From a virus, in the IMG/VR virus record IMGVR_UViG_3300007351_000003, positions 4,022 to 68,021 of that record: 64,000 nucleotides of DNA, one strand, 5' to 3'. Numbering within the stretch: the first letter of the stretch is position 1; every line of letters starts with the position of its first letter. Positions 47,270 to 63,724 of this stretch are shown one piece after another. Below the pieces are notes generated by a model. It was not told the DNA's origin. It worked only from the letters and a program-made list of their open reading frames with translations, and did not search any database. The translations under genes and the position numbers were made by a program.

Positions 47270-47290
47270 CTGTTCACCTCCACGTTGGTG
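47231..47290. repeat. attC-like site
   Basis: CGATAAC...GGT[C]GAA/TTCACC...GTTGGTG, 60 bp. Confidence 0.8.
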
Positions 47291-47310
47291 CGGCGCTTCG
47301 CGCCGGAAAC

Positions 47311-47456
47311 CTTTTACGTCTGGGCGGGCTGGTAGGGACTTTCGGTTCTGCCACCATCACCCGACGATCGGGAGTCCTCCCGGCGAAGGGATTCTCATCC
47401 ACGGTACGGTATCGTTTTAGCGACAGCCGCCGCCAGTTCCCGCCCAGACGTAAAAG
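47311..47456 (-). ncRNA. 146-nt structured RNA candidate, copy 1 (strand assumed from operon direction)
   Basis: 18-bp closing stem and internal hairpins; 139/146 identical to 63489-63634. Confidence 0.65.
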
Positions 47457-47539
47457 CTTTTTATATTAAGCGCCGCACCAATGGGGCCGTTAAGTCGTGA
47501 CCGGCAAGCATTGGTTGATGCGTCGCACACTACGCGCCG

Positions 47540-47604
47540 CACCAACCAAGCCGTTCAAGACCGACCGCCCCTAACGGGGCGGCGACTTAACGGCCCCATT
47601 AAAT
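47540..47604. repeat. attC-like site (ATT variant)
   Basis: GCACCAAC...GTT[C]AAG/CTTAAC...ATTAAAT. Confidence 0.8.
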
Positions 47605-48045
47605 TTCTTCATGCCTCACGAAGACGGCGGTTGATAGTTCCAACCTCCGCAAAACTGAGACAAGCATCACTACTTCGGCGCTCTTGTTCGCAGCGGTATA
47701 CGTTGCCTCTTTTGCCGTTCGCACTTGTTTATCGTATAACTCAAGCAAGCCCCACGAGTCAGGCAATTCATCGGGCTTGACGAGTTTCGCGGGAACTAGA
47801 AAATAACGGTGATCCCCCATACCGCGCTCTTGTTCCCGGCGAAATATTTTATTCTTATCCGAGAGAAAATCTGCTCTCGATGCCTTGCACTCCACAAGGA
47901 TGCTAGCTCCACCAGAAGCATAGAAGCCTATCGCGTCTGGAGTTTCGGTGTTGTGTGTAGTGGCAAGTTCGGCCAAAATGATTGTGCAACGCCGATTATT
48001 TGCAAGCCATGCCTGAGCTTTTTTGACCAACTCTTTATGAGTCAA
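47599..48045 (-). CDS. PD-(D/E)XK nuclease-like (MmcB-related) cassette gene
   Basis: ETPDAIGF...LVECKASRADF. Confidence 0.7.
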   Translation of the reverse strand: MTHKELVKKAQAWLANNRRCTIILAELATTHNTETPDAIGFYASGGASILVECKASRADFLSDKNKIFRREQERGMGDHRYFLVPAKLVKPDELPDSWGLLELYDKQVRTAKEATYTAANKSAEVVMLVSVLRRLELSTAVFVRHEEI

Positions 48046-48058
48046 ACCGACCTCTGAA

Positions 48059-48115
48059 ATTTAACCAGTCAGTCCAGCCGTCCAAAAAGGACGGCAGCTG
48101 ACTTCTGCGTTATGG
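48059..48115. repeat. attC-like site
   Basis: ATTTAAC...AGT[C]CAG/CTGACT...GTTATGG, 57 bp. Confidence 0.8.
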
Positions 48116-48322
48116 TTCCAACCTCTTCATGAATTCTGCATTGCCATCCTCATGGCACCTGCTGCAGATATATCTTTTTGTCTTGATCGTCTTGTATGCC
48201 CTCGGTGCCTTATCTCGTGGCGGGTATGTGGTGCGGTTATCTGTATTGAATGCCTCTATGCCGAGGAATATCAATCCAAGAGTGAGAGCGATGCTGACTA
48301 TTGTGAGTCCGGGATTGGCCAT
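48110..48322 (-). CDS. Small membrane-anchored protein
   Basis: N-terminal TM, CSRCH; stop lies in the attC TAAC. Confidence 0.55.
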   Translation of the reverse strand: MANPGLTIVSIALTLGLIFLGIEAFNTDNRTTYPPRDKAPRAYKTIKTKRYICSRCHEDGNAEFMKRLEP

Positions 48323-48325
48323 GTT

Positions 48326-48475
48326 CTAATCTCCACTGTCGTCGGTCTGGTTTATGTCTTTCGGAGTAACCGCCATTTGTATCCTGTGCAATGCGCTGTA
48401 TACCGCTTCCCGGTTCTTCGGGTCGTTGTAGTTCTCAATTGCAAAATCAATATCTTTCTTTATCGTTTCGATCAT
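48326..48475 (-). CDS. Small hypothetical protein (49 aa, not in ORF track)
   Basis: Hand translation MIETIKKDIDFAIENY... Confidence 0.45.
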   Translation of the reverse strand: MIETIKKDIDFAIENYNDPKNREAVYSALHRIQMAVTPKDINQTDDSGD

Positions 48476-48614
48476 TCGTCACCACCTTGGTTAAGTTTGC
48501 AGGGCGACCCCGGACCAGGAGCCGCCCTGCATATGTAAAGGAGGTCCACTCCCCATGAGTGGCAAAAGAAACCCTGCCAGTAAGGAGAACCAGAAACCCG
48601 GCAGGGCAAATCAT

Positions 48615-48833
48615 TTATTCGTCTCCGTCTTGAGTGGGGTAAAGTATGTCATACGGTTTAAATGTTGCCTCGTGGATCGCCCTCGCTACTTCAACTCGCA
48701 TACGCTCGTAGGCCCTGATACGAATTTCTTTCGGGAGGCTGTCGAATTGTTTTTTTACGTCCGGGTGGACACGAAAGGAAACTGGGGGGCCTGTTTTTTC
48801 ATACTGCTGCAGATCGTCGCAATCTTTAGCCAT
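48615..48833 (-). CDS. Small regulator in cII position (ribbon-helix-helix-like)
   Basis: PVSFRVHPDVKKQF; AAAGGA SD; follows cro. Confidence 0.55.
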   Translation of the reverse strand: MAKDCDDLQQYEKTGPPVSFRVHPDVKKQFDSLPKEIRIRAYERMRVEVARAIHEATFKPYDILYPTQDGDE

Positions 48834-48900
48834 ATGTGTCATTCCTTTCGTAAATAGTGAACCAATGTAGACAGTGACAAAGAAAAAAATATATGTATAC

Positions 48901-49122
48901 TCAGGACGCTTTCCCCATGCGCTTGCCGAGTGACGGATTTTCAGCGAGGTGATATTTTCGAAAACCTTTTCGCTTGCTGAGAAAATAAATCGGTTTTTTA
49001 CCGGCGAAGATGGCAAGGTCGATCGCAAGGGGGATGATGGTAGTTTTTTTATCCCCCCGCAGGAGTGGGGTTAGGAAGCTCGGCTCGACGCCGTGCTTAT
49101 TGGCAATCTCAATCTTTTTCAT
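48901..49122 (-). CDS. cro: Cro-like HTH protein
   Basis: EIANKHGVEPSFLTPLLRG; divergent from repressor. Confidence 0.75.
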   Translation of the reverse strand: MKKIEIANKHGVEPSFLTPLLRGDKKTTIIPLAIDLAIFAGKKPIYFLSKRKGFRKYHLAENPSLGKRMGKAS

Positions 49123-49130
49123 TAGGCTTA

Positions 49131-49209
49131 ATTGTACTTTAGTACAAGTTAAAAGTCAACATAAAATTGTACTATAGTTTATTGACGTAGCTTTGAGGAT
49201 GCATATAAT
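49131..49209. promoter_or_regulatory. OR region: PR (minus), PRM (plus) and two operators
   Basis: PR TTGACT-N17-TACAAT (49159 to 49131); PRM TTGACG-N16-TATAAT (49182-49209); operators 49132-49147 and 49167-49182. Confidence 0.85.
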
Positions 49210-49215
49210 GAATGG

Positions 49216-49506
49216 ATGGAGAACTCCATGAAGGTTTTAGGGCGGCATATAAGAGCTTTGCGTAAATCCAGAGGATTAAAGGCAAAAGACATTGCAGAAC
49301 GTGCCAATTTGACACCTACTTATATAAGCAGGGTAGAAAACGGGAGAGTTGATGGCGTTTCGGTCGAGGTAATCATGAGGATCGCCCAAGCCATGTCTGT
49401 ACCCACGGCAGCTTTGTTTAAAGACGATGAGATCGTGGAAGAATTAATAAAACATGCGGAACTAATGAAGAAATTTTTTAAGGAAGAAGGCAAAAAAGAC
49501 AAATAA
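49216..49506 (+). CDS. XRE-family HTH repressor (cI position, no peptidase domain)
   Basis: IRALRKSRGL..KDIAERANLTPTYISRVENG. Confidence 0.85.
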   Translation: MENSMKVLGRHIRALRKSRGLKAKDIAERANLTPTYISRVENGRVDGVSVEVIMRIAQAMSVPTAALFKDDEIVEELIKHAELMKKFFKEEGKKDK

Positions 49507-49542
49507 TACCCTGAAAATACCCTGAAAGTATTAGATATGAGG

Positions 49543-49571
49543 TTGACAAATAATCCTTTCTTATGTTTAAT
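49543..49571 (+). promoter_or_regulatory. Sigma70-type promoter for a small lysogeny-region gene
   Basis: TTGACA-N17-TTTAAT with extended TG. Confidence 0.55.
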
Positions 49572-49600
49572 TGGCTTATTAAATCAAGGAGGATTAAGGA

Positions 49601-49777
49601 ATGAAAAAAGAAGAACCCTGCAACAATCTGAGGAACAACCTGTGCAAGCGATGCAGATCCAGCCGTATTGTTGTGGTGCCACGGGCCGCATTTGTGAAAT
49701 ATCTGAAACAAGGAAACGCCCTGCTATCGAAGTCGTTTTGCCCTCCCAACTCCATCCATAAACTACCGAAACAATAA
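49601..49777 (+). CDS. Small Cys-containing protein (58 aa, not in ORF track)
   Basis: MKKEEPCNNLRNNLCKRC...; AAGGAGG SD; own promoter and terminator. Confidence 0.5.
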   Translation: MKKEEPCNNLRNNLCKRCRSSRIVVVPRAAFVKYLKQGNALLSKSFCPPNSIHKLPKQ

Positions 49778-49798
49778 AAAATAATAATACTTTGACTT

Positions 49799-49826
49799 AA
49801 AAAAGGCACCCTTGGGTGCCTTTTTT
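49799..49826. terminator. Bidirectional Rho-independent terminator
   Basis: A6-GGCACC-CTTG-GGTGCC-T6. Confidence 0.85.
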
Positions 49827-49842
49827 ATTGTCCGAAAAATAA

Positions 49843-49895
49843 TTGTACTATAGATATATTTTTTACTTGCATTGTTAGTTGTACTATGGTACAAT
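49843..49895 (+). promoter_or_regulatory. OL region: PL and two operators
   Basis: TTGCAT-N17-TACAAT (49867-49895); operators 49843-49858 and 49879-49894. Confidence 0.8.
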
Positions 49896-50060
49896 TCAAC
49901 CATGCTTAATTTGCTGCGTTAGTTTCACCCTCTGCCCCTTCTTACGAAGCAGGGCGTGAGGGTTCTAATAGCAACATGGTACATCCACCAGCATCGGGAT
50001 GGTTTCAAAGGCGGATTACAATCGGCCAAAGGTAATTGAGCTTCTTACCGCACCGCAGTA

Positions 50061-50262
50061 CCAGTAGGTAGTTCTTGGAGGGGGTTGAGCTACGGAGGGC
50101 CAAACCGGTAGCGCAAATCGAAAACGACACAGTGCGTACCCTGATCCCGGGGTCTGAAGCGCACGAGAGATACAGGAAGGGGCCGCTTGCTGGTCGTCGA
50201 AGCAACGCGTTGGTCTGCAGGCAACAGACACTCTTCCTGCCTCGCCAAGAACTACTTACTGG
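50061..50262 (+). ncRNA. Structured RNA candidate in the PL leader
   Basis: 17/18-bp closing stem 50061-50078/50245-50262 enclosing several hairpins. Confidence 0.45.
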
Positions 50263-50326
50263 ACACCACGAGCGCAGCACCAGCGATTTTAAGAATCGCG
50301 CCATTCTCCAAGAAAGGAGGGGCACT

Positions 50327-50560
50327 GTGAGCGCATTAGCGGAAACACTCAGCAAAGCCAGAACGCGCCGTAAGTTGTCGATGAACGACGTATCCAGGCA
50401 GTCCAGCATCGCCAAAGATCACCGCGGCAGGATCACTCAGGGCTACATCTCCCGCCTTGAGTCTGGCAAAGAAACAAACCCATCATTCCTGAAACTGCAG
50501 ACGCTGTGCAATATTTACCGGATCAATCCGGGGACACTCTTTAAGCAAACGGTGAGATAG
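50327..50560 (+). CDS. XRE-family HTH protein
   Basis: GTG start with AAGGAGG SD; ITQGYISRLESG..NPSF. Confidence 0.8.
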   Translation: MSALAETLSKARTRRKLSMNDVSRQSSIAKDHRGRITQGYISRLESGKETNPSFLKLQTLCNIYRINPGTLFKQTVR

Positions 50561-50634
50561 ACTTGTACGGCGCAAGAGCGGACTGTAAATCCGATCCGAA
50601 AGGCCAGGAGGTTCGATTCCTTCTCTCACCACCA
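50551..50634 (+). tRNA. tRNA-Tyr(GTA) with encoded CCA and atypical D-arm
   Basis: GGTGAGA/TCTCACC acceptor stem, A73-CCA, CT-GTA-AA loop, GGTTCGATTCC T-arm, long variable arm. Confidence 0.8.
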
Positions 50635-50651
50635 TCACGCTCGATCATGAT

Positions 50652-50667
50652 AGTTCCACGTGAAACA
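50652..50667. promoter_or_regulatory. parS: parS-like ParB loading site
   Basis: AGTTCCACGTGAAACA, 15/16 to TGTTCCACGTGAAACA. Confidence 0.7.
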
Positions 50668-50767
50668 TCGGTGCAAAATCCTCAACCGGAGGTGATTGCC
50701 CTATGAAGTAGGAAAAACACTTATTTTATCACTGTTCCTTATTGAGAGTACCAAAAGCAAAGTTTTA

Positions 50768-50779
50768 CGTTCTTTCACA
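50768..50779 (+). promoter_or_regulatory. boxA-like element
   Basis: CGTTCTTTCACA in the PL leader. Confidence 0.4.
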
Positions 50780-51017
50780 TCAAGATCCACATCCAGAATT
50801 ACATCAAGTTAAAAAGGGCGGGCAGAGCCTCTTGCACCCGTGAGATAGGGTTCAGCTCCAATAAAACTTCGCGGCTTTCAGATACTCTGAGCCGCACACT
50901 AATCGAGCGATGGGGAGAAATAAAAAATTACCCGACGCAAAGCTCTGCCGCCCTCACCTACGAGCATCCTATATCGGAATCATATTTTTATTTTATTCAA
51001 CGTCGAAAGGTGAACCC

Positions 51018-51209
51018 ATGTCAGAATCAAAATATGAGTCATTTTCGTCAATCAGCGAACTGAAGCCGGGAATGATCGTTCGCGGAAAGTCAACCGGACA
51101 AACGTTTATGGTCCTCGTAAGCTTTGGGGACCGCGTGACTGCCGTAAGCACGGCAGACATAACGAATCCCGATGAGTGGGAAGTTTTAAAAAAAATAACG
51201 CCAAGCTGA
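51018..51209 (+). CDS. Small hypothetical protein
   Basis: 63 aa from MSESKY, AAAGGTG SD; LKPGMIVR SH3-like. Confidence 0.55.
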   Translation: MSESKYESFSSISELKPGMIVRGKSTGQTFMVLVSFGDRVTAVSTADITNPDEWEVLKKITPS

Positions 51210-51434
51210 CCCGCAGCCGAGGAGGAGAAGCATGAGCATGTGTCGAATACCAGACTGTGGATATTATTTCAAGGGATGCTGTAAAAAGAAAGATGGAACT
51301 ATTTGCACTGCTCAGGCTTCGCCGTCTCGAACGAGTGGTTCTCCGACCGCGTCGCGGTCGGACTCGGTCGAGGCGGCTGCCTCTCAACTCGCCGCCATTC
51401 CAGCGGTCACAATCGAAAGTTGAGGAGCGAGTCT

Positions 51435-51599
51435 ATGCAAAAACTTACAGTAAAGGAACTCAGAGACGCACTGCAAAAGGCAGACGATAATGCAGATATC
51501 ATTATTCATACTGCCAAAGAGATTTCGACAGCGAGGCAAGTAGTGATAGGCAGAGAACCGTTCATCATGATAATCGCAAGCGACGAAACTTGTCCTTAG
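51435..51599 (+). CDS. Small hypothetical protein
   Basis: MQKLTVKELRDAL, GAGGAG SD. Confidence 0.55.
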   Translation: MQKLTVKELRDALQKADDNADIIIHTAKEISTARQVVIGREPFIMIIASDETCP

Positions 51600-51668
51600 A
51601 AGCGTGACCGCTGGAATGCTTGCGTAACTCGCAGGCGTAGCCAGTCGAAGTTGACGCGATTGTTACGA
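51594..51668. repeat. Degenerate attC-like site
   Basis: Imperfect hairpin ending TTGACGCGATT-GTT; left AAC lost. Confidence 0.45.
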
Positions 51669-51702
51669 TTGTTATGATTGCGTCTAAAGGTGGTAATTGA
51701 AA

Positions 51703-51840
51703 ATGGACGAAAAAGTTTACGATCTTTCATTAGAAGATATCAGACCATTGATTGACCTACCTGCCGAATATGAATTGGTTCGCGCAGATAGCAACGGAAA
51801 CGGAACAGGCGTGATTGTCAAACTGGTCAAGCGATCATAA
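51703..51840 (+). CDS. 45-aa cassette-like ORF (not in ORF track)
   Basis: MDEKVYDLSLEDIRPL...; flanks GTTATGATT / GATCATAAT pair. Confidence 0.5.
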   Translation: MDEKVYDLSLEDIRPLIDLPAEYELVRADSNGNGTGVIVKLVKRS

Positions 51841-51894
51841 TGCGGCGGTAAGCCTCGGCACGCGAAGCGACGGGTTCGACCCGTTTGGTTAAGA
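51835..51894. repeat. Degenerate attC-like site
   Basis: TCATAAT-GCGGCGGTAAGCCTCGGC...GTTAAGA; left arm resembles 62609. Confidence 0.55.
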
Positions 51895-51915
51895 CTTTTT
51901 GGAGGGCTGATATAT

Positions 51916-52224
51916 ATGCCAAGAAAATTATCTGAACCCGTTATGCGATACGCGAATGCCATGCAATTGAAATTGAACAAAAACGCGCACAAAGGCGGCT
52001 GGATTCGCTATGACAATCGGGGCCGACGAATATGGGCTCCTGAAGACGTGCGTTTTTTGCTCAACAAACTTAAAGAAGAGCACGACGAACTGATTGCAGA
52101 GGTGGAAAAGTATTTGTCTAATCCATGCATGTATCAAGGGAACAATCTGCTGAAAGAAGCTGCGGATAATGGAAATATTTCGATGATGCTTGCGGATGTA
52201 TGTAGGCAATTGAAAAAAGTATAA
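51916..52224 (+). CDS. MazG-like nucleotide pyrophosphatase-fold protein
   Basis: KLKEEHDEL...EAADNGNISMML; stop in TAAC. Confidence 0.55.
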   Translation: MPRKLSEPVMRYANAMQLKLNKNAHKGGWIRYDNRGRRIWAPEDVRFLLNKLKEEHDELIAEVEKYLSNPCMYQGNNLLKEAADNGNISMMLADVCRQLKKV

Positions 52225-52276
52225 CGCGCCGGATGAACGGCGCAGCGGAAGCGGAATGTCGGTCCGCTGGTTGAAA
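52219..52276. repeat. Degenerate attC-like site
   Basis: GTATAAC...CTG-GTTGAAA, 58 bp. Confidence 0.5.
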
Positions 52277-52299
52277 ACGGCGATATCAGGAGGCCCACC

Positions 52300-52548
52300 A
52301 TGAAGAAACAGAAATTGCTCTGCGGAAAGTGCAAAACGGAACTGGACGAAAGCATGCTCTGCTCGGTAACTGATACTGTCGGCGAGGTTTACCGGGAAAG
52401 AAAGGCTTTGTGCTGCAATAATCCAGATTGCTCGGCACCGATCCATGTAATTTCTATGACCGAGGGGCCGATTGAGAAACCCAAAACGTTTTTTGGCCGC
52501 TCCTGGCTCCTCGCTCCTATTGGCCGGCTGCTCATGGGGAGGACATAG
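52300..52548 (+). CDS. Zinc-finger hypothetical protein
   Basis: CGKC...CCNNPDC; AGGAGG SD. Confidence 0.55.
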   Translation: MKKQKLLCGKCKTELDESMLCSVTDTVGEVYRERKALCCNNPDCSAPIHVISMTEGPIEKPKTFFGRSWLLAPIGRLLMGRT

Positions 52549-52660
52549 TCATGGAGATAACCTATTGCTCCTGGATTCGCGTGATCGAACAGGCACAGCG
52601 GGAAGCCCCTGTCTGGCTGGAAGAAGCATTCGCTCGGATCAAGCAGAAAGAAGTTGCGTA

Positions 52661-52858
52661 ATGACCGAAACCGCACCCATACACAACTTGGCCGACGCCC
52701 TGCCATATCTGCAGGAACTGATGAAAGTCACCTGCACCTGTCAGCACAAGCACACAAATCCGAAATATCATAAAGCCGGGTGCCCCTACCCGGAAGAAGC
52801 ATATAAACTTTGTCCAATGTTGAAGGAGACCACCGATGAACCCGAACGCAACAGTTGA
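52661..52858 (+). CDS. Small hypothetical protein
   Basis: TAATG-coupled MTETAPIH... Confidence 0.45.
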   Translation: MTETAPIHNLADALPYLQELMKVTCTCQHKHTNPKYHKAGCPYPEEAYKLCPMLKETTDEPERNS

Positions 52859-53008
52859 TCAGCAGTGCAGCAATGCCCATGGAACCAATACCTGTGGAGC
52901 TGGCTGGAAGCAGTGCCCCTGCCCTCAGTCGATCGACCACATCAAAAAGGTACGGCGCCGGGGAGATCCCGGGCCCCTGCCGCCGAGAGAAGAAAGCGAG
53001 GAATACCG

Positions 53009-54988
53009 ATGAAAAAGATCAGCCTGAAGAAACTGGTGCTCAAGGACTTCCAGGGCGGGAATTTCACGCTCGAATCGAACGGACAGGATGTTCATATCAG
53101 CGGGGATAACGGGGTAGGCAAAACGAGGCTTATCAGCGCCTTCACGTGGCTCCTGTTCAATAAAGACTCCCTCGGCCGCAACGACTTCCAGATTAAGAAC
53201 CTTGACGCGACCGGCGAAGCCGCGCACGGGCTCGAGCATACCGTCGAAGCGGTACTGGATGTAAACGGCGACCTCGTAACACTCAAGAAGGTCTACGTGG
53301 AAAGATGGACCAAACAGCGCGGCCGAGCGCACGCGGAATTCTCCGGCCATACCACGAACCATTTTATCGATGAGATACCCGTATCCGAAAAAGACTACAA
53401 GGCCCGAATCGCCGAGATCACCGGGGATGAGGCACGGTTCCGCCTTCTGACCTCCCCTACCACATTCCCCGCCCTACACTGGAAGGAAATGCGGTCCATC
53501 CTGCTTTCGGTCTGCGGAGATATCAGCGACCAGGATGTGATCAACTCCGACGAGAAGCTTTTCGCCCTTACCGCAATCCTCGGGAAGAGAAAACTGGACG
53601 ACCACAAGAAGGTCGTTGCAGCCAGAAAAGCTGAGATCAATGGGGAACTCGGGAAGATCCCCGTCCGGATAGACGAGGTGCGCCGGTCCCTGCCTGACAT
53701 CGCTGGATTGGACAAGGACGCGCTTTGGAACGAGCAGTTGCGGCTCGAGGGCGCCATCTCTGACGCCAAACTCCGGAAGCAGGGTGTGGACACCGGAGGG
53801 GCCATTGCGGACCTGACCAAACAACTGAAAGCCATCGACTCCGACCTGTACCGGATGGAGCGCGCGCACAGCGACGAGATCGGAAAAACAGTGGGCAGAC
53901 TGAGCGGAGAAGTCACGGAAGCCTATGAAAAACTTCGTGCCAGCCGCAACCGTCTGGATGCCATTGACGGGGAAATAAATCGCAAGAAGTCCTCTGTAAG
54001 CGCCCTTGAAAACGATCTGGACCGATACCGGTCCCAGTGGGGCGGCATTGAAGCCGAACGGTTCCAGGACACAACAGCCGAAGCATGCGCTGCCTGCGGC
54101 CTGTCCCTTCCCGCTGGTCGTGTTCAGGAAGCTCGGAATAAAGCCCTGAAATTATTCAACGATACCAAGGCGAACCGACTGGCAGAGATCACAAGGAAGG
54201 GCGTACAACTTAGTGACGAGCGGGACGGGCTGCAGTCCCAGATTGCAGCACTTGAAACAGAAAAACAAGGTCTTACCGTGACCATTCCGGAGGCAGAAAA
54301 GCGGCACCAGGAACTTACCGCCGAGCGCGATGCGGTCAAGAAGCAAGCAGAGGACTATTCCGCGATACCGGGCAGGGCCGCACTGCTCGCCCAGAAGACC
54401 GATATCGAACAGAAGATTACGGCCGCCAAGGGCTCGGTAGCCCAGGACACCGCCAAGATCGAGCAGGAAATCGACGGCATGGAAACTACCCTGAAGGGCG
54501 TCAAGGAGAAGCACGGCCGGTTCGAAACACGCGAAAAGGCAGAGAAGCGGATCGAAGAACTGAAAGCCGAGGAAAAGAAACTGGCGTCCGAGTTTGAACA
54601 GCTCGAATCCGAACTCTTCCTGTGTGAACAGTTCATCAGGACCAAGGTGAGCATGCTGACCGACCGGATCAATTCCCGGTTCGAGATCGTGCGCTTCAAA
54701 CTGTTCAATGTTCAGGTCAATGGCGGACTGGATGAGTGCTGCGAGATCACCGTCAATGGGGTGCCTTATAACGGCGGTCTGAACAATGCGGCCCGGATCA
54801 ATTCCGGCCTTGACATTTGCCGGACCCTCTCCCAGCACTACGGCCTTCTGGCGCCGGTCTTTGTAGACAATGCCGAATCCGTGACCAGTTTGGTAAAAAT
54901 GGACGCCCAGGTTATCCGGCTGGTCGTGAGCGCGCTGGACAAGACGCTCCGGGTGGAGATGGCAAACAGGAAAATGGTGGCAGCATGA
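53009..54988 (+). CDS. SbcC/RecF-like ABC ATPase with long coiled coil
   Basis: GDNGVGKT Walker A; CAACG zinc hook; LNNAARIN signature; VFVDNAES Walker B. Confidence 0.88.
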   Translation: MKKISLKKLVLKDFQGGNFTLESNGQDVHISGDNGVGKTRLISAFTWLLFNKDSLGRNDFQIKNLDATGEAAHGLEHTVEAVLDVNGDLVTLKKVYVERWTKQRGRAHAEFSGHTTNHFIDEIPVSEKDYKARIAEITGDEARFRLLTSPTTFPALHWKEMRSILLSVCGDISDQDVINSDEKLFALTAILGKRKLDDHKKVVAARKAEINGELGKIPVRIDEVRRSLPDIAGLDKDALWNEQLRLEGAISDAKLRKQGVDTGGAIADLTKQLKAIDSDLYRMERAHSDEIGKTVGRLSGEVTEAYEKLRASRNRLDAIDGEINRKKSSVSALENDLDRYRSQWGGIEAERFQDTTAEACAACGLSLPAGRVQEARNKALKLFNDTKANRLAEITRKGVQLSDERDGLQSQIAALETEKQGLTVTIPEAEKRHQELTAERDAVKKQAEDYSAIPGRAALLAQKTDIEQKITAAKGSVAQDTAKIEQEIDGMETTLKGVKEKHGRFETREKAEKRIEELKAEEKKLASEFEQLESELFLCEQFIRTKVSMLTDRINSRFEIVRFKLFNVQVNGGLDECCEITVNGVPYNGGLNNAARINSGLDICRTLSQHYGLLAPVFVDNAESVTSLVKMDAQVIRLVVSALDKTLRVEMANRKMVAA

Positions 54989-55233: not shown

Positions 55234-55259
55234 GAAGATAGTAAATAGAAAGGCGAAAC

Positions 55260-56538: not shown

Positions 56539-56633
56539 ACCTTCGGCGAAGGGCTGCCTGACAGAAATGCAGGACAGCAGCCGATCACTCCCGGTACCGG
56601 TGTAATCCGGACCGGGAGTTTAATAAAAAAATT

Positions 56634-57206: not shown

Positions 57207-57901
57207 GTCATTGGCGTCATCCAGTAAAGGAAATGCTTATATCGTTACAGCGGAAGGGGCAGCGCCGTTGCTCATCGAAGCAGGTATGCCAATCCGCACT
57301 TTGAGAGAACGCCTAGGTTTTGGCGTTACGGGTCTCGCGGGGTGCCTTGTATCCCACGAGCATCTTTGACCACGCCAAAGGCGTCAAGGACTTGCTTAAA
57401 GCAGGCGTAGACTGCTGGATGAGCGCAGGGACCGCCGAGGCACTTGGAGTATTCGGCCATCACCGGCATTGCCTGCTTTTGCCTGACGATACTGCGACAC
57501 TAGGAAATGGATGGACGGTAAAGCCTTTTGATCTACAACACGACGCCTCAGAGCCGCTCGGCTTCCTCATAGGCCACAAAGATGAAAGGCTTCTGTTCGT
57601 TCCAGATACCGCATACGTCGAGAACCGCTTCGCAGGTGTCACCCTGGCCGCGATCGAATGTAACCACGTGGAGTCCATCCTGTCGCAGAATATCGTAAGC
57701 GGCCGGGTGGATCCTTCTCTCGGGAAGCGGATACGCAGGAATCACATGAGCCTGGAAACCGCAATCGCCATGCTCAAAGCCAATGATCTGAGCAAGTGCC
57801 GGAAGATTTTTTTGCTTCATCTCTCAGACGCTAACTCGGATGAGCAGCGCATGAAACTTGAGATCCAGCAGGCCACAGGAATACCGACTGAAATATGCTG
57901 A
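57196..57901 (+). CDS. MBL-fold exonuclease requiring a +1 frameshift at 57364-57370 (or a pseudogene)
   Basis: LASSSKGN...SHEHL in one frame, DHAKG...HDA...DT...IECNH...LLHLS in the +1 frame; junction CTT TGA C. Confidence 0.85.
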
Positions 57902-58146
57902 AACTTGAATTCAACAAACCATCCATTAATTGTATGTATTTCCGGGAGAAACTTTCCGGGGTTGGGGAGAATGTCTGCATCCATAAATTCGATACTTGTA
58001 CACCAGTAGACTGTGAAGATAAGGCGCCATATCCTGCAGCGGAAGATATCCGACAAGAAAATTGGAAGCGCAACTACGAAGAATGCCCAAGCATGGACTG
58101 TGAGCTATGCGAGGATAGAGAAATCTGTGAAGGAAGTGAAGTGTAG
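57895..58146 (+). CDS. Cys-rich hypothetical protein
   Basis: 83 aa overlapping the upstream stop. Confidence 0.45.
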   Translation: MLKLEFNKPSINCMYFREKLSGVGENVCIHKFDTCTPVDCEDKAPYPAAEDIRQENWKRNYEECPSMDCELCEDREICEGSEV

Positions 58147-58223
58147 AGCAGCCCGCACCACGCGGGCAGAGAACGCCAAGCTGACCCGCAGCCGAGGAGA
58201 AGCTATCGGAAAGGAGAAATATC

Positions 58224-58625
58224 ATGGGCATGCCTGACAGAACGGTTGATCCGAACGGAATTGAAGAAGACGACGCATATATGACCATCTTCGAAGAGGC
58301 ACGCAAGGAGAAAATGGCCGATATGGACGTATGGGTTGCCTGGAAGATGGGTCTTGCAGCATATCAGCAGGCGCGGAAACTCGACGTGAAGTTTCCACAC
58401 GACACACCGGAACCGATTGATACCCCGGACCACATGACCATCGCGGATATGAAAGTTGAAGTTGCCGACTACGAACCGCATTATAACATGATTGATGCCG
58501 AAACCATCCGCGAATCATCATGTCCGGCTTGCAAGGGCCCGCTTATGTACCGTGGATTCAAGCATGGTGACTCATACCGTGCGTTTGCCGTATGCAAGAA
58601 ATGCAATCGAGCGGACGAATTTTAA
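58224..58625 (+). CDS. Hypothetical protein with C-terminal zinc ribbon
   Basis: CPACKG...CKKC; AAAGGAG SD after an attC half-site. Confidence 0.6.
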   Translation: MGMPDRTVDPNGIEEDDAYMTIFEEARKEKMADMDVWVAWKMGLAAYQQARKLDVKFPHDTPEPIDTPDHMTIADMKVEVADYEPHYNMIDAETIRESSCPACKGPLMYRGFKHGDSYRAFAVCKKCNRADEF

Positions 58626-58771
58626 AGCGTCCAACGCGGTCGATAGGATAGATGGCGCTGAAATCGTACTGGAAAATAAAATAGCCCAGGCAATCCCCGG
58701 CCCGGACGGGAAGTCAAGATGGACTGCCAACCCTTATGTATGGAGCATTTACTTTAAGAGAATACCTAACC

Positions 58772-59113
58772 ATGACACATTTTGAAGACGGACCCGCAAA
58801 AGGGGAAACCCTGATGCTGAAACGTTCTCCCATCTTTCTCCGTGTGGTAGAAGTTAACGGACAATGGGACGCTCTTGATCAGTTGGATGACGAACCAGCC
58901 CCCCATGAGAAGATATACGCCTATGAACGCATAGGCGAGCCCGGCATGGTGCATATCAATGCAGGGCGTAAGGGCAACAGTGGGTGGTATCCGATGGCAG
59001 CTTACCGGTTCATAACTGATCAACCAACCGATTCTGCAATGCTCGACAGCGAAGCCTGGCGGCAGTGGTGCCGGAATAGAGTAAAACCGAAATCTACAGA
59101 GGTCTTAAAATAA
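58772..59113 (+). CDS. Conserved phage hypothetical protein
   Basis: FEDGPAKG...WDALDQLDDEP motif. Confidence 0.6.
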   Translation: MTHFEDGPAKGETLMLKRSPIFLRVVEVNGQWDALDQLDDEPAPHEKIYAYERIGEPGMVHINAGRKGNSGWYPMAAYRFITDQPTDSAMLDSEAWRQWCRNRVKPKSTEVLK

Positions 59114-59574
59114 TGGTCATCCTTGCCTTTCTGCAAAACATGTGGGTTCGGGAGCCCGAGAAGGTCCGGGCTTGGCTGGACAAGAATCCGCATCTCTGGA
59201 ACCGTGCCGTAACCGGCTTTTTGTTCTCGGGCTGTCTGACCGGCCGGAGGATTAAAGCCTGCTTCGGTGACCTGGTCGAGAAGATGACATTCGAGGAATG
59301 TACAAGGGAGATCGCCGGCGATTCCCGAACCATCTGCCCACCGAACACCGCACACATCGAGGCTTGTATCGAGAAGTACAAACCGACGGTTGTGGTCACG
59401 TTCGGGAGGATCGCAGCTGAGGCGGTACGACCGATCTGGCATGCCTGGTCCACATTGACGCCTGAATATTTTATCGCATTGCCTCACCCAGCAGCCAGGC
59501 AGGTCGACACGATCAGCAAACTGAAGTCTGCAGCCAATAAGATCAGGAGGCTCTGTGGAAACTACATCAGTTAG
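59113..59574 (+). CDS. Uracil-DNA glycosylase-like superfamily protein
   Basis: PTVVVTFGRIA and IALPHPAAR motifs. Confidence 0.6.
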   Translation: MVILAFLQNMWVREPEKVRAWLDKNPHLWNRAVTGFLFSGCLTGRRIKACFGDLVEKMTFEECTREIAGDSRTICPPNTAHIEACIEKYKPTVVVTFGRIAAEAVRPIWHAWSTLTPEYFIALPHPAARQVDTISKLKSAANKIRRLCGNYIS

Positions 59575-59734
59575 CGGCGAAATCAAAAAAGAAACCGACC
59601 TCGCCATACTGTTCTTTGACGGGGAAAAGGAAGTCTGGATACCGAAATCACAGATCGAATCCCGGGTGAATTACAGCGATAGCGTGGAGATTGAGATTCC
59701 GGCCTGGTTAGCAGAAGAAAAGGAGTTGGTATGA
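59555..59734 (+). CDS. Small conserved phage protein (59 aa, not in ORF track)
   Basis: GTG with AGGAGG SD; WIPKSQI...IPAWLAEEKEL. Confidence 0.6.
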   Translation: METTSVSGEIKKETDLAILFFDGEKEVWIPKSQIESRVNYSDSVEIEIPAWLAEEKELV

Positions 59735-60129
59735 GCGACGTTATTAGAGACATTACAGATTACTCCATGAGCGAAGACTATGAACTGCTTTGGGACTTGG
59801 CACAAAAGCAGTCAGTCGTGTGCGAGGTGGACTATGATTCCAGAAACAATGATCCATCCAAACCTATCCGGGACATAGCAGCCACTCGATCTCACAAGCA
59901 TCGTGATGAAATAGTGGTCGAGGTTGAAGTCAGAGGGTACGGGTATATCTATGCCACTGATAAAGAAGATTTCCTGATGCAGTGCCGGAGATCGCGGCTG
60001 AAGTTCATATTGCCCCACATCAGAAAAAAAGAGAGATGCATACACTACTCGTGCAGACTGTGCTTATTGGGCAGTGGTATATGCTCAGGATGCGAGGGCT
60101 GTAAAGAATATGAACCTGACGGGTTGTAA
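59731..60129 (+). CDS. Hypothetical protein
   Basis: 132 aa, ATGA-coupled. Confidence 0.55.
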   Translation: MSDVIRDITDYSMSEDYELLWDLAQKQSVVCEVDYDSRNNDPSKPIRDIAATRSHKHRDEIVVEVEVRGYGYIYATDKEDFLMQCRRSRLKFILPHIRKKERCIHYSCRLCLLGSGICSGCEGCKEYEPDGL

Positions 60130-60132
60130 TTA

Positions 60133-60402
60133 ATGGCCGCCTTCTCCAAAGATGGCTGGGTTAACCGCTTCTGGCACTGTGACGGTTGCGGGAAAGAAGG
60201 ATCATGGGAAGAAGGCTGGTCATGGTACGGGTCAATCTTACATCTCGACACATGCCCGAACGATGTCCCGGTTGCCTGTTCAGATGCTTGCGCGAAGATC
60301 GTTCAGGAGAGGATCGACAGCGGCCAGTACGTTTTACCGAAACCGAAGCTGAGGAATAAGAAATACTACTCGGCAGTGGTGACGAAGAGAAAGGGGTACT
60401 GA
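60133..60402 (+). CDS. Zinc-binding hypothetical protein
   Basis: CDGCG...W...ACSDAC. Confidence 0.55.
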   Translation: MAAFSKDGWVNRFWHCDGCGKEGSWEEGWSWYGSILHLDTCPNDVPVACSDACAKIVQERIDSGQYVLPKPKLRNKKYYSAVVTKRKGY

Positions 60403-60591
60403 ATGAGCGAAGAACTTAATCCAATCCCCTGCCCGTCATGCGGCGAAGATCTGGTAAAAAAAGATGACCATCACGGAGACTGGTGGGCTCACAAGAATGA
60501 TCTGTCAAGCTGCATTTTTTCATTCATTCAATTGATGGATCAATCTGATGTTAAACGGTGGAATATTCGACCGACTATCCCCGGGCTCTAA
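60403..60591 (+). CDS. Lar-like zinc ribbon protein
   Basis: PCPSCG...KRWNIR. Confidence 0.55.
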   Translation: MSEELNPIPCPSCGEDLVKKDDHHGDWWAHKNDLSSCIFSFIQLMDQSDVKRWNIRPTIPGL

Positions 60592-60821
60592 GTAACCCAC
60601 ATCCCAGAACACGATGGGGCCACAGGATTCACCCGGGGGCTCACGCTGGCCGAAGGTATGGAGTTGCTGCCGAAGTTGGTTGAATACATCCTTACCGCCG
60701 AGGGGATGCAGTGTATAAGCGGACTGTCTGTCAATCTAGTGCTTACCCTGCCCTGCGGGGATCGCGTAGAGGTCCAGAAAGATGATATTGCAGAAAGTAC
60801 CAAGAGATAAGAGGAGTCATT

Positions 60822-61073
60822 ATGAGTAACGAGCAGCCGCAAAAAGTAGTGAATACTCTCCCGGCCGAGGGCCTTTGTCGACTCAGGCAGATCATAGGAT
60901 ACAGGGATAAAGATTCTGGTGAATGGGTGCCAGGCTTCCTTGCTATCAAAAAAAGTGCATGGTATCGGGGGATCATAGAAGGCAAATACCCGAAGCCTGC
61001 AAAGAAGTTTGGCACTCGCTGCACTTTATGGGATGTTGATGATATCAGGAAGCTGAAAGAAAAGGCATCGTAA
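60822..61073 (+). CDS. alpA: AlpA-family excisionase/regulator
   Basis: LCRLRQII...IKKSAWYRGI.EGKYPKP.KFG.RCTLW. Confidence 0.85.
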   Translation: MSNEQPQKVVNTLPAEGLCRLRQIIGYRDKDSGEWVPGFLAIKKSAWYRGIIEGKYPKPAKKFGTRCTLWDVDDIRKLKEKAS

Positions 61074-61126
61074 TGCGATACTGACCCCTGCTACTTTAGC
61101 GTGGGTGTCGAGCACTCTGGTTAGTT
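61068..61126. repeat. attC-like site (AAT variant)
   Basis: CT-GAC-CCC pairs with GGG-[T]-GTC-[G]-AG; ends GTTAGTT. Confidence 0.75.
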
Positions 61127-61148
61127 TTCCAGAGTGCGGAAAGGCAGC

Positions 61149-61391
61149 ATGATAAAGATTACAGACAGACGGTCAATTTTAAAACAGGTCATCAGCGGGA
61201 TTTGCTGGTCTCCGGTGGCTCTCATCGGCTTATTTATTGCTGCGCTCGTGGGCCTGATGGCATACGGTATTACAATTACCATTCTTGGCGGCGGGCTGCT
61301 TAAAGTCATTATTGGATTAGCGAAGTCTGCCGGTATTATGGCCGTGGTTTTCGGATACATCATTGCATTTATATGGTCGAACCAAAACTAA
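61149..61391 (+). CDS. Cassette gene: two-TM membrane protein
   Basis: Hydrophobic 80 aa; stop in TAAC. Confidence 0.65.
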   Translation: MIKITDRRSILKQVISGICWSPVALIGLFIAALVGLMAYGITITILGGGLLKVIIGLAKSAGIMAVVFGYIIAFIWSNQN

Positions 61392-61489
61392 CGCGAGCAT
61401 GAGCCGCGTACACATTGGAGGGCAAATGAAGCATTTTATTAAAACCACAACGGAGCAGATCGGGCGACGGCTCGATGCTCTGGTTAGAA
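61386..61489. repeat. Long attC-like site (104 bp)
   Basis: GAGCAT-GAGCCG pairs with CGGCTC-[G]-ATGCTC; ends GTTAGAA. Confidence 0.85.
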
Positions 61490-61614
61490 TTTGTCATGTT
61501 CATTGGCATTCTAAGTTTGCGAGATCGTGGATATGTCACTCATACCCATGCTATTATCCTGTTTCTGATTATCGCTGCCGATGTGGGCACATTAAGACAT
61601 ATCGCACAAATTGA
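61426..61614 (+). CDS. Cassette ORF initiating inside the attC loop (62 aa, Cys/His-rich)
   Basis: GGAGGG SD and ATG within the attC variable loop. Confidence 0.45.
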   Translation: MKHFIKTTTEQIGRRLDALVRICHVHWHSKFARSWICHSYPCYYPVSDYRCRCGHIKTYRTN

Positions 61615-61677
61615 TTTTAACGCGGCGCTGACCTGCCGCAGCGAAGCGGAGGCCAGTGTCGAGCGTCCTGGTTAGAA
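61615..61677. repeat. attC-like site
   Basis: GCT-GAC-CTG pairs with CAG-[T]-GTC-[G]-AGC. Confidence 0.85.
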
Positions 61678-61680
61678 TTT

Positions 61681-62304
61681 ATGCCAATGATCGCAGCACT
61701 ATATGTTATGAAAAACGGCGTCTATTATGGGTTGCCCGACGTGGACCCATGGGACGCTCACCGCGACGCCCGGAAGTACGCAGGGCCTTTCCCGGTTGTC
61801 GCACATCCGCCCTGTGAACGATGGGGCCGCTATTGGAGCGGAGGGCCGATGTTGGCAAGGACGCCGAAGGCCAAAAAAAAGGGCGACGATCAGGGATGTT
61901 TTGAGGCGGCGATAAATGCAGTACGCCGATTCGGCGGAGTCATTGAACATCCCGAGGGCAGCCACGCATGGACGGCATTCGGTTTGAACAAGCCACCGCG
62001 AACCGGGGGATGGGTGACGGCAGACTTTGAGGGCGGCTGGACATGTTGTGTCGAACAGGGACATTACGGGCACAGAGCTCGCAAGGCAACCTGGTTATAT
62101 GCGCACAGCGTAGAATTGCCGGATTTGAAGTGGGGTTCGTGCGGTAAAAAGGAACGGCTGGAAGACGGATACCATTCAACGGAAGAGCGGCGGCGGGCAG
62201 TTCGTACCGGGATTTGCCAGAGGTTATCGAAAAACCAGCGCACCGCGACGCCGCAGGAGTTCCGGGATTTGTTGATTGGAATTGCAAAGACGGTACGGAA
62301 TTAA
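61681..62304 (+). CDS. Cassette gene: minimal C5-methyltransferase-like protein
   Basis: AHPPC (motif IV-like), VIEHP (VI-like), QGHYGHRARKATW (VIII-like); no FxGxG. Confidence 0.65.
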   Translation: MPMIAALYVMKNGVYYGLPDVDPWDAHRDARKYAGPFPVVAHPPCERWGRYWSGGPMLARTPKAKKKGDDQGCFEAAINAVRRFGGVIEHPEGSHAWTAFGLNKPPRTGGWVTADFEGGWTCCVEQGHYGHRARKATWLYAHSVELPDLKWGSCGKKERLEDGYHSTEERRRAVRTGICQRLSKNQRTATPQEFRDLLIGIAKTVRN

Positions 62305-62306
62305 AA

Positions 62307-62365
62307 TTCCAACGCTTGCGTCAACCGCGAGCGAAGCGTAGACGGTTTGGACGCAATTGTTATGC
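62307..62365. repeat. attC-like site (59 bp)
   Basis: TTGCGT-C-AACCG pairs with CGGTT-[T]-G-[G]-ACGCAA. Confidence 0.85.
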
Positions 62366-62387
62366 GCCATCACGGAAAAGGAGAACA

Positions 62388-62606
62388 GTGAAAACTATTA
62401 TCACGAAACAACAGTTCACAGAGTTAGTGGGGATTCTGGCACTCGCAGATCATGAAATGAAAATCCTCAACACCCTAAACGATGCGGCACACGCTATCAC
62501 AGGTGAAAAAGATGATTGGGGACATACGGCAGATGCGATCTGGGACGACAACCTACGAGACGCGAAAAAATTGTTGAGGAAGCTCAAAATCATCGTTAAA
62601 AAGTAA
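62388..62606 (+). CDS. Cassette gene: 72-aa hypothetical protein
   Basis: GTG with AAGGAG SD. Confidence 0.6.
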   Translation: MKTIITKQQFTELVGILALADHEMKILNTLNDAAHAITGEKDDWGHTADAIWDDNLRDAKKLLRKLKIIVKK

Positions 62607-62608
62607 GC

Positions 62609-62672
62609 GCATAATGCGGCAGTTAAGCCTCGGCCCCGTCAGGGGCCGAAGGTCTTGAACTCCTGGTTCTCT
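62609..62672. repeat. attC-like site (AAT variant)
   Basis: GTT-AAG-CC pairs with GG-[T]-CTT-[G]-AAC. Confidence 0.85.
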
Positions 62673-62776
62673 CAGCGCTGATTTATAGCGCGTTTTGAGA
62701 AGGAGTTCAGGCTTAACTGCCGCATTCCCTCAGCGCGGCTCATGTAAAAGGCTTTAAGCTGAAAGGAGATTACACA

Positions 62777-62923
62777 ATGGCAACGAAAATCGAAAAGGTG
62801 CTTCAAGATACAGAAAAATGGCTTGAAAAAGAAAAAACGTGGGAAGACGATTTAGACGGATTAGATGCCATAGATATAGCGAAGGCTGTAATTCATCGGA
62901 TCAGAGAGCGGCTTTCAGCTTAA
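62777..62923 (+). CDS. Cassette gene: 48-aa protein (not in ORF track)
   Basis: MATKIEKVLQDTEKW...; AAAGGAG SD. Confidence 0.55.
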   Translation: MATKIEKVLQDTEKWLEKEKTWEDDLDGLDAIDIAKAVIHRIRERLSA

Positions 62924-62945
62924 AGCCTACCTCTAATCAGCGCTG

Positions 62946-63002
62946 AGGGAACCCGACAAAATGAGGGGTGCGGAGCATCCCGCTCGATTTTAATGGTTAG
63001 CC
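62946..63002. repeat. attC-like site
   Basis: AAAAT-GAG-GGG pairs with CCC-[G]-CTC-[G]-ATTTT. Confidence 0.8.
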
Positions 63003-63035
63003 GCTTTCATCGGTTTAGCCAGAAAGGATACTATT

Positions 63036-63350
63036 ATGAGTTGGGGAGAAAGAAGCTGCAAGCGGCCTTGTCGTTGTCCTCAGAAATGTAAAATGGAAAC
63101 GTGTAATGTTGATTGTTCCTCGTATGAATGGGATGGTGTGACAAAACCAGATTCGGCGTCAAAAATAATGAAATATTGGCCTTGTGAATGTCCTTTTATC
63201 GTGGGGCAGAATAGGTGTCAAGTTCATGATGCTGAAGCTACATGGATAATGTTCGATACGCCATTACGGGGTTATGACAACCAGAGAGTACAGGAGGCCC
63301 TTAAATCACTGGAAGAGCTGTGCAGGTCGGGCAAGAAGTTAAGCGGCTAA
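63036..63350 (+). CDS. Cassette gene: Cys-rich hypothetical protein
   Basis: 104 aa; stop in TAAC. Confidence 0.6.
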   Translation: MSWGERSCKRPCRCPQKCKMETCNVDCSSYEWDGVTKPDSASKIMKYWPCECPFIVGQNRCQVHDAEATWIMFDTPLRGYDNQRVQEALKSLEELCRSGKKLSG

Positions 63351-63405
63351 CCCCGGGGCTAAGCCATCGCCCGTAGGGCGATTGGTTTTGAACTCCTGGT
63401 TGATA
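63345..63405. repeat. attC-like site
   Basis: GGCTAAC...ATCGCCC-GTA-GGGCGAT...TT[G]AACTCCTG-GTT. Confidence 0.8.
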
Positions 63406-63488
63406 CGGCGCGTAGCTTGCGCCGTGCCAACCGATTAGAGACTTCAGCGGCTCAAGGCCCCCATTGGTGCGGCGCTTAATATAAAAAG

Positions 63489-63634
63489 CTTTTACGTCTG
63501 GTCGGGAACTGGCGGCGGCTGTCGCTAAAACGATACCGTACCGTGAATGCGAATCCCTTCGCCGGGAGGACTTCCGATCGTCGGGTGATGGTGACAGAAC
63601 CGAAAGTCCCTACCAGCCAGACCAGACGTAAAAG
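63489..63634 (+). ncRNA. 146-nt structured RNA candidate, copy 2
   Basis: Inverted copy of 47311-47456 with a compensatory G-C to U-A change in the closing stem. Confidence 0.65.
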
Positions 63635-63654
63635 GTTTCCGGCGCGAAGCGCCG

Positions 63655-63712: not shown

Positions 63713-63724
63713 CACGGAGGGGAA

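Follow-up and report, generated by a model that had tools for sequence, protein, structure and literature searches.

A duplicated 146-nt element in phage early operons resembles a swappable hairpin-framed module rather than a known regulatory RNA

The 146-nt element that occurs once in each early arm of this phage looks like a swappable hairpin-framed module of early operons and not like a member of a known regulatory RNA family. Among the structures tested, only the long stems exceed chance, and it is because these stems beat chance and the rest does not that we prefer a hairpin-framed module to a known RNA family. We tentatively propose, at somewhat short of an even chance, that a hairpin-framed module system carries the element as non-coding cargo, that the element is co-transcribed, and that its stems are likely RNase III substrates.

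In the window (the whole stretch of 64,000 nucleotides analysed), the element forms the core of a 216-nt inverted repeat with 93% identity and 15 differences between copy A and copy B. The cores differ at 7 of 146 positions, as the first-pass annotation had reported, and alignment, a repeat finder and a script concur on the repeat and on its two copies. Searches with the repeat and with a covariance model (R1) found no further copy in the 83-kb virus record. Both read in the sense direction of their operons, each ~35 nt upstream of a start codon, and the earlier placement of one sense copy per early arm agrees with the neighbouring genes in both divergent arms. On the transcribed strand, read from 5' to 3', domain 1 comes first, a conserved junction of three helices; the P0 5' arm follows, then an A-rich spacer and the P1 5' arm. 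Next come 110 nt whose subterminal blocks are conserved and whose centre varies, then the 3' arms of P1 and P0 in that order, and finally the next gene's ribosome-binding site and start codon. The parts of the repeat are as follows.

47282-47497, minus strand: full repeat, copy A; 216 nt, matching itself at 100% and its inverted partner at 93%
63448-63663, plus strand: full repeat, copy B; 216 nt, 15 differences from copy A
47311-47456, minus strand: core, copy A; P1 stem 47439-47456 with 47311-47328, 110-nt interior 47329-47438
63489-63634, plus strand: core, copy B; P1 stem 63489-63506 with 63617-63634, 110-nt interior; inverted repeat at 91%
47470-47481, minus strand: P0 5' arm, copy A, TTGGTGCGGCGC; a direct copy of the 5' arm of hairpin 2 in domain 1 (47534-47545)
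47285-47296, minus strand: P0 3' arm, copy A, GCGCCGCACCAA
63640-63654, plus strand: local hairpin CGGCGC-GAA-GCGCCG after copy B, where P0 is down to 6 bp with 63470-63475

In copy A, P1 is an 18-bp perfect inverted repeat (21/22 when extended) that stacks on a P0 of 12-14 bp (47285-47298 with 47468-47481), and the minimum-energy fold retains both, so that flanking sequences form the near-perfect RNA duplex of about two turns expected of an RNase III stalk. In copy B, P0 is only 6 bp (CGGCGC/GCGCCG), and P1 carries one compensated pair, G-C to U-A, together with an uncompensated C to A change giving a G.A mismatch; the 18-bp closing stem and its compensatory change had been described correctly, but the mismatch had gone unmentioned. 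Long-range perfect inverted repeats like P1 and P0 number 10 in the window versus 0.16 in shuffles, and the early arms hold nine of the ten. The whole core of copy A has a folding z of -5.4, and the 110-nt interior does not exceed dinucleotide shuffles in stability (z -0.38 in copy A, -0.81 in copy B). Fold strength is equal on both strands, and copy B retains fold energy no better than random mutants do (p 0.44). The small hairpins previously assigned to the interior do appear in the minimum-energy fold of copy A, but the interior equals its shuffles and these hairpins are lost in relatives. The picture of a 146-nt multi-hairpin RNA is therefore not supported, since the stems alone beat chance, the strands fold equally, and one soil relative (rec4) loses 11 of the 51-52 pairs of the single-sequence folds.

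Relatives of the element come from one run (soil metagenome X3) as short contigs, and their sequences were rebuilt from a difference table that lacks one rec4 substitution and six rec5 substitutions. Soil contigs at about 87-90% identity span 47294-47481, and one of them keeps 47289-47347 and 47427-47548 while its central 79 letters are replaced by 78 unlike ones. Depth in this run is 36-68 in arm bins versus 16-18 in the interior, and the flanking genes are uncovered; the relatives conserve the arms and subterminal blocks and vary in the centre. P1 pairing survives two fully compensated changes among copies and relatives: positions 47443 and 47324 pair as G-C or U-A, and at 47441/47326 copy A has G-C and rec4 has U-A, with G.A in copy B and in two relatives. 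Fold energy in rec4 is retained better than in random mutants (p about 0.03). In wastewater contigs, domain 1 and the P0 5' arm occur at up to 98% identity with other sequence beyond, which indicates that domain 1 and the element are separable; a clean empty site did not turn up, in these contigs or otherwise.

These relatives also bear on the possibility that the element is a genuine stable small RNA, cut from the operon transcript within the stalk, whose interior blocks bind a protein or a host RNA; a variant would have the RNA serve in counter-defence within an anti-restriction neighbourhood. Interior blocks of 15, 16, 11 and 32 nt are unchanged across about 13% divergence, both copies lie in the sense orientation, and copy A adjoins a Lar-like gene. 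Moreover, in a rod model, three copy B changes are one-sided with pairing kept via G-U, and one pair appears as U-G, U-A and A-U. However, this model was tested on the sequences from which it was derived, interior stability equals that of shuffles, rec4 loses the pairs noted above, and the centre is replaced in one relative. In addition, the element has no Rfam family, no promoter or terminator of its own and no antisense target above chance in the phage. We therefore consider a stable small RNA rather unlikely. Two of these observations also weigh against the module: the invariant blocks would fit a sequence-specific RNA or protein-binding function too, and the alignment-derived rod model gives some interior covariation, in a test that is circular.

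Rfam at the gathering score over the whole window returned no match to the element, including C4, c4-2 and c4-a1b1, and at E<=10 around both copies only chance-level hits were obtained (Twister-sister, Scr6106, rydB, CRISPR-DR20, Termite-flg and MIR856), so the suggested kinship with C4/P4-CI RNAs was not borne out. Like the C4/P4-CI RNAs of P1, P7 and P4, the element is phage-borne and non-coding and would be processed from a longer transcript; unlike them, it matches no covariance model, lacks complementarity to a phage target and is about twice their size. The target search that the first-pass annotation had proposed yielded no antisense target above chance in the phage: there is no complementarity of at least 13 nt, one 12-mer was found versus 1.07 expected, and eight 11-mers versus 4.1 +/- 2.7 expected. 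No open and conserved reading frame exists in any of the six frames of either copy, in line with the earlier view that the element holds no convincing ORF; a 13-aa peptide is identical in copies A and B, yet it is missing from the relatives. A retron was dismissed, as no reverse transcriptase is present. Blastn of the region matched nothing in GenBank phages, plasmids or E. coli genomes, five words taken from the element and domain 1 had no exact match in IMG/VR, and scanning JGI metagenomes and GTDB genomes with an 18-mer returned 9 matches, all judged chance by the covariance model. R1 was likewise negative on four contigs from phages with an SbcC-like/RecT module in common with this one (55-59% identity), and IMG/VR holds no close relatives of the phage's 98-aa and 707-aa proteins. 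No RNA sequencing runs containing the locus were listed, with either the whole locus or the core alone as query.

The module reading draws further on domain 1, which precedes both copies and recurs a third time.

47480-47600, minus strand: domain 1, copy A; 18-bp closing stem around two hairpins, directly upstream of P0
63351-63465, plus strand: domain 1, copy B; about 65% identity to copy A, identical fold

After copy C of domain 1 (62613-62726) comes an outer stem (62718-62736 with 62940-62958); nested in it, a perfect stem of 17 bp (62749-62765 with 62912-62928) surrounds a 48-aa ORF including its Shine-Dalgarno sequence and stop codon. Thus the order of domain 1, outer stem, inner stem and cargo recurs around this ORF. 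The proposal that the element is non-coding cassette cargo gains from this, because the element lies between mutually complementary flanks and a like architecture encloses the 48-aa ORF. Mimicry of a CRISPR repeat by domain 1 was discarded, the resemblance to a type I-C repeat being merely weak (PMC8916207).

Such cargo recalls integrons. Integron cassettes are characterized by IntI and by attC sites with a 7-bp R box and extrahelical bases, conserved at the base and variable at the apex. Like them, the element is cargo framed by complementary ends with a conserved base and a variable apex; unlike attC, its stems are perfect over 13-18 bp and no IntI accompanies them. Neither P0 nor P1 has the attC boxes, a 5'-arm RYYYAAC that pairs with a 3'-arm GTTRRRY. 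In domain 1, the order is reversed in copies A and C (5'-arm GTTAAGY, 3'-arm RCTTAAC), and copy B carries neither box. No IntI-type integrase lies beside the array; the sole tyrosine recombinase, just right of the window, is P4-type with Arm-DNA-bind_3, Phage_int_M and Phage_integrase domains and matches only NF007246 (274 bits, under the model's 434-bit cut-off) and no integron-integrase model. The flanks once labelled attC are indeed complementary (12-14 bp in copy A, 6 bp in copy B), but they lack attC boxes. With flanks that are no attC sites and a P4-type integrase nearby, the element is not an integron.

A DNA-level element was also considered, either a MITE-like transposable palindrome or a pair of inverted recombination substrates that would let the 16-kb control and early segment invert or exchange. 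MITEs have been reported from phage genomes, usually as two per viral sequence that carries any (PMC11602168); the present element likewise has two copies. Like MITEs and palindromic intergenic repeats such as Correia and ERIC, the element is ~150 bp (146-152 bp), non-coding, intergenic and predicted to be co-transcribed, and its terminal inverted repeats of 18-22 bp form a long hairpin; it thereby has the small size, the lack of coding capacity and the terminal repeats of at least 10-15 bp that define MITEs. Conserved subterminal regions with a variable centre, equal folding of both strands, and the SbcC-like ATPase and RecT encoded by the phage are further points in favour. In contrast to MITEs, no target-site duplication of 2-10 bp abuts the repeats (flanks ...AATATAA/AAAG... 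and ...GTTT/CCGG...), the sole direct repeat nearby being the 6-bp CGGCGC, 8 nt off on one side and 1 nt on the other, and no cognate transposase is known or was found. All copies seen also have identical flanks and lie in the same conserved hairpin context, nested within a second stem. Compensated stem changes suggest selection for pairing rather than for a protein-binding end, although hairpin-templated correction could mimic them, and inversion lacks junction evidence. A DNA-level element is thus unlikely. The module itself is touched by two of these observations: no target-site duplication adjoins its inverted repeats, and because both copies and the soil relatives share P0 and the domain-1 context, independent insertions are not demonstrated.

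A parallel to exchangeable cargo may be sought in the PeSLs of T4-type phages, composite terminator/promoter motifs that combine a local stem-loop with a sigma-70-like early promoter and mediate modular shuffling (PMC2839356, PMC4122927). Like PeSLs, the present structures are conserved motifs bordering small variable early-region units, between which exchange among phages can be inferred. In contrast, the arms pair across the cargo and not as a local hairpin, and the stem-loop followed by a sigma-70-type early promoter is absent; a consensus scan found no promoter-like site in 47270-47600 or 63351-63667, where no own terminator was found either.

The genes that follow the two copies bear on possible cis-acting roles.

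46853-47269, minus strand: gene downstream of copy A; Lar-like zinc ribbon plus the C-terminal half of an M78 peptidase (PF14354, PF06114; phrog_599), TTG start, Shine-Dalgarno GGAGGTG at 47275-47281
63668-63964, plus strand: gene downstream of copy B; 98-aa ORF without family match, ATG start, Shine-Dalgarno GGGAGAA

As both copies end about 35 nt ahead of a Shine-Dalgarno sequence and start codon, the element could act as a leader, riboswitch-like or as a translational operator, in which GCGCCG would pair either in a local hairpin or in P0 and so set downstream expression. Indeed, the first 6 nt of the P0 3' arm of copy A alternatively close the local hairpin CGGCGC-GAA-GCGCCG (47291-47305), and this hairpin and P0 are mutually exclusive. 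Yet the proteins encoded downstream of the two copies are unrelated, the element matches no known riboswitch class, a conserved ligand-pocket-like junction with covariation is lacking, P0 of copy B is just 6 bp, and R1 was negative at 80 loci with Lar-like genes of other phages, so that the element is missing upstream of those genes. A cis-acting leader is decidedly unlikely. We regard as highly improbable a processive antitermination signal of the put or nut kind, one per early arm: the arrangement of one sense copy in each divergent arm, with promoters at 49131-49209 and a Cro/CI-type HTH gene at 49216-49506, would suit it, but copy B, at the distal end of its arm, is ~14 kb away from the promoters, the element is far bigger than put or nut sites, its centre is replaceable, and similarity to any Rfam model was not detected.

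For the hairpin-framed module, the most plausible RNA-level role is that of a processing element, an alternative already raised by the first-pass annotation. RNase III processing stalks are known from the stems that flank pre-16S/23S rRNA and from the early intercistronic sites of T7, the latter being local hairpins with internal loops. Like such stalks, the element presents long near-perfect duplexes built from both sides of a unit within a polycistronic transcript; unlike the rRNA and T7 stalks, its stem cleavage is only predicted and the enclosed unit has no known product. The element would be transcribed through within the early operon mRNA, and host RNase III may cut the coaxial P0 and P1 duplex (about 33 bp in copy A) as it does rRNA-precursor stems and T7 early sites. 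Cleavage would part the upstream from the downstream cistron and free the enclosed ~150-nt RNA as a by-product. At the DNA level, recombination within or at the complementary arms, which are conserved, may swap cargo from phage to phage and also from one early arm of this phage to the other, in a manner comparable to PeSL-mediated shuffling or to insertion into a hairpin loop. A bolder version has poor prospects: that the early arms consist of hairpin-framed units whose complementary arms are exchange points of integrase-independent cassettes, and that the 146-nt RNA cargo is released from its stalk as a stable RNA serving host takeover or counter-defence beside the Lar-like gene. In that case, an SbcCD-like nuclease of the phage could cleave the hairpin tip, followed by RecT annealing.

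On present evidence, neither the module nor the stable-RNA reading justifies filing the element as a new RNA family. If it were a stable RNA, it would be a new phage RNA beside an anti-restriction gene. If instead the module reading holds, this phage group would need no integron integrase to shuffle its small early genes and non-coding pieces, using conserved complementary arms instead, which would offer a way for the mosaic 'ORFan' regions of temperate phages to arise and make counter-defence cargo findable by its frames.

The element, a 216-nt inverted repeat with a 146-nt core, is carried by an 83,217-bp IMG/VR virus record estimated to be 93% complete, of which bases 4022-68021 form the window. 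The features that frame it are:

47282-47497, minus strand, element copy A (core 47311-47456)
63448-63663, plus strand, element copy B (core 63489-63634)
49131-49209, divergent sigma-70-like promoters
49216-49506, plus strand, Cro/CI-type HTH gene beside these promoters
64038-65399 (genome C1:68059-69420), minus strand, P4-type integrase with an arm-binding domain, just past the window

The leftward arm contains a phrog_631 protein, a Lar-like gene, methylases, replication genes and virion genes. The O-like replication initiator (35182-36327, minus strand) has an HNH endonuclease insertion at residues about 91-227, and the 996-aa C5 DNA methylase (41272-44262, minus strand) has a Hint/intein insertion. 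The phage carries a heavy load of selfish elements. The rightward arm encodes an SbcC-like ATPase, RecT and numerous small ORFs, with a tRNA-Tyr (GTA; 50551-50634, plus strand) near its start, and the integrase is convergent with its end, approximately 400 nt beyond copy B.

Gapless alignment of the two cores reproduced the 7 differences in 146 positions reported in the first-pass annotation, and the whole repeats differ at 15 of 216 positions. No further copy occurs in the phage genome. As also reported, each copy is in the sense direction of its own arm. Each ends ~35 nt ahead of a Shine-Dalgarno sequence and a start codon. That the element acts as a leader of the downstream gene appears improbable; this gene is a Lar-like/M78 fusion ORF after copy A and a 98-aa ORF without a family match after copy B. 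The fusion ORF (46853-47269, minus strand) has a TTG start and encodes a Lar-like zinc ribbon (aa 10-64) followed by the C-terminal half only of an M78/IrrE peptidase domain (aa 70-132). Within the element no reading frame is both open and conserved, and indels among relatives have lengths that are not multiples of three, in agreement with the suggested absence of a convincing ORF.

The entire control and early segment is flanked by the two inverted copies, and recombination between them would therefore invert it. MITEs are present in phage genomes (PMC11602168), and the element is similar to them in its repeats, size and absence of coding capacity but has no abutting target duplication. It also resembles the PeSL-bounded shuffling units (PMC4122927) but lacks a promoter. 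We consider it rather unlikely that the element functions at the DNA level, as a MITE or an inversion substrate.

The whole core folds well (z -5.4 in copy A and -4.1 in copy B), as do its opposite strands (z -5.7 and -5.8), whereas the 110-nt interior folded alone gives z -0.38 and -0.81. The folding signal therefore resides in the 18-bp stem P1 closing the core (21 of 22 pairs on extension) and the outer stem P0, which spans 12-14 bp in copy A and is reduced to 6 bp in copy B. The enclosed hairpins described earlier are ordinary for sequence of such composition, and the proposed attC flanks and likeness to C4-type antisense RNAs failed the respective tests.

No relatives emerged from searches of curated or exact-word sequence collections, and the comparative data consist solely of contigs from four public runs, reached through a k-mer index and placed on 46850-48050. 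One soil run yielded several short contigs over the element, covering 47294-47481 (20 substitutions, 5 gaps) and 47294-47453 (16 substitutions, 4 gaps), or retaining 47289-47347 and 47427-47548 with the central 79 letters replaced by 78 unlike ones. Soil-run depth was higher in the arm bins (36-68) than in the interior (16-18), and the neighbouring genes had no coverage at 80% likeness. Two relatives, rec4 and rec5, were rebuilt from the difference table, with 1 and 6 substitutions unlisted, respectively. The P1 pair 47443/47324 is G-C or U-A, and at the pair 47441/47326 copy A has G-C, copy B and two relatives have G.A and one relative has U-A, indicating that pairing was restored by two different routes.

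Blocks of the interior that are 15, 16, 11 and 32 nt long are invariant across relatives, and two other segments are hypervariable and contain indels. When the fold is predicted from either copy A or copy B by itself, 11 of its 51-52 pairs are lost in rec4 and 11-14 in rec5. A rod-like model derived from the alignment has some covariation, such as one pair seen as U-G, U-A and A-U, but this test is circular because the same four sequences had been used to fit the model. Compared with random mutants, rec4 retains fold energy better (p about 0.03), largely via P1, whereas copy B does not (p 0.44). Moreover, complementarity between the interior and other parts of the phage does not exceed chance. 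A minority reading, at perhaps slightly better standing than a DNA-level element, is that the element is excised as a stable RNA whose role is sequence-specific.

Upstream of each copy of the element lies another structured unit, domain 1, of about 115 nt with a conserved GGTYTTGAAC and two hairpins enclosed by a closing stem of 18 bp. Its copies and the inverted repeats in the window are:

47480-47600, minus strand, domain 1 of copy A
63351-63465, plus strand, domain 1 of copy B
62613-62726, plus strand, third domain 1
62718-62736 with 62940-62958, outer stem after the third domain 1
62749-62765 with 62912-62928, perfect 17-bp inner stem after the third domain 1
47062-47074/47227-47239, 51396-51410/51604-51618 and 31996-32008/32130-32142, further perfect repeats of the 13-17-bp set around small units

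The domain-1 copies upstream of copies A and B share only ~65% identity yet have a similar fold, and comparison of all three copies shows double compensatory changes at 8 of 37 pairs. The evidence for a structure is stronger for domain 1 than for the element. Domain 1 is also present in the absence of the element in two wastewater runs and a third run of unrecorded source, where domain 1 and the P0 5' arm (up to 98% identity) are followed by other sequence. Hairpin 1 and the following GGTCTTGAAC (47547-47584, minus strand, and counterparts in the other copies) bear a weak likeness to a type I-C CRISPR repeat, which terminates in ATTGAAAC (PMC8916207). None of the Rfam CRISPR-DR models matches domain 1, and the single weak CRISPR-DR20 match (E 1.6) falls in the hairpin after copy B; domain 1 as a solitary-repeat anti-CRISPR RNA is a low-odds lead.

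The P0 5' arm is a repeat of its counterpart in domain-1 hairpin 2, so that P0 looks like such a hairpin whose loop contains the element; CGGCGC occurs as a 6-bp direct repeat close to both junctions. The same order recurs after the third domain 1, where the outer and inner stems surround coding cargo, an acidic 48-aa ORF including its own Shine-Dalgarno sequence and stop codon. Perfect long-range inverted repeats of 13 bp or more, with 50-250 nt between their arms, number 10 in the window versus 0.16 in shuffles, and 9 of the 10 lie in the early arms. The units that they bracket include the zinc-ribbon coding part of the Lar-like gene within a longer ORF, part of a 98-aa ORF and the whole 48-aa ORF.

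Taken together, the data fit a dedicated folded RNA less well than a scaffold of nested hairpins that is conserved while its contents are replaceable. Therefore, we tentatively regard the element as a non-coding cargo carried by the hairpin-framed units from which the early arms are built, the reading we favour though well short of confidence. RNase III cuts stacked near-perfect duplexes of this kind in rRNA precursors and T7 early mRNAs. The conserved arms would be the sites of the recombination by which such cargo spreads, the element would be transcribed along with its operon, and at the RNA level the stacked P0 and P1 duplex of about 33 bp might be cut by RNase III.
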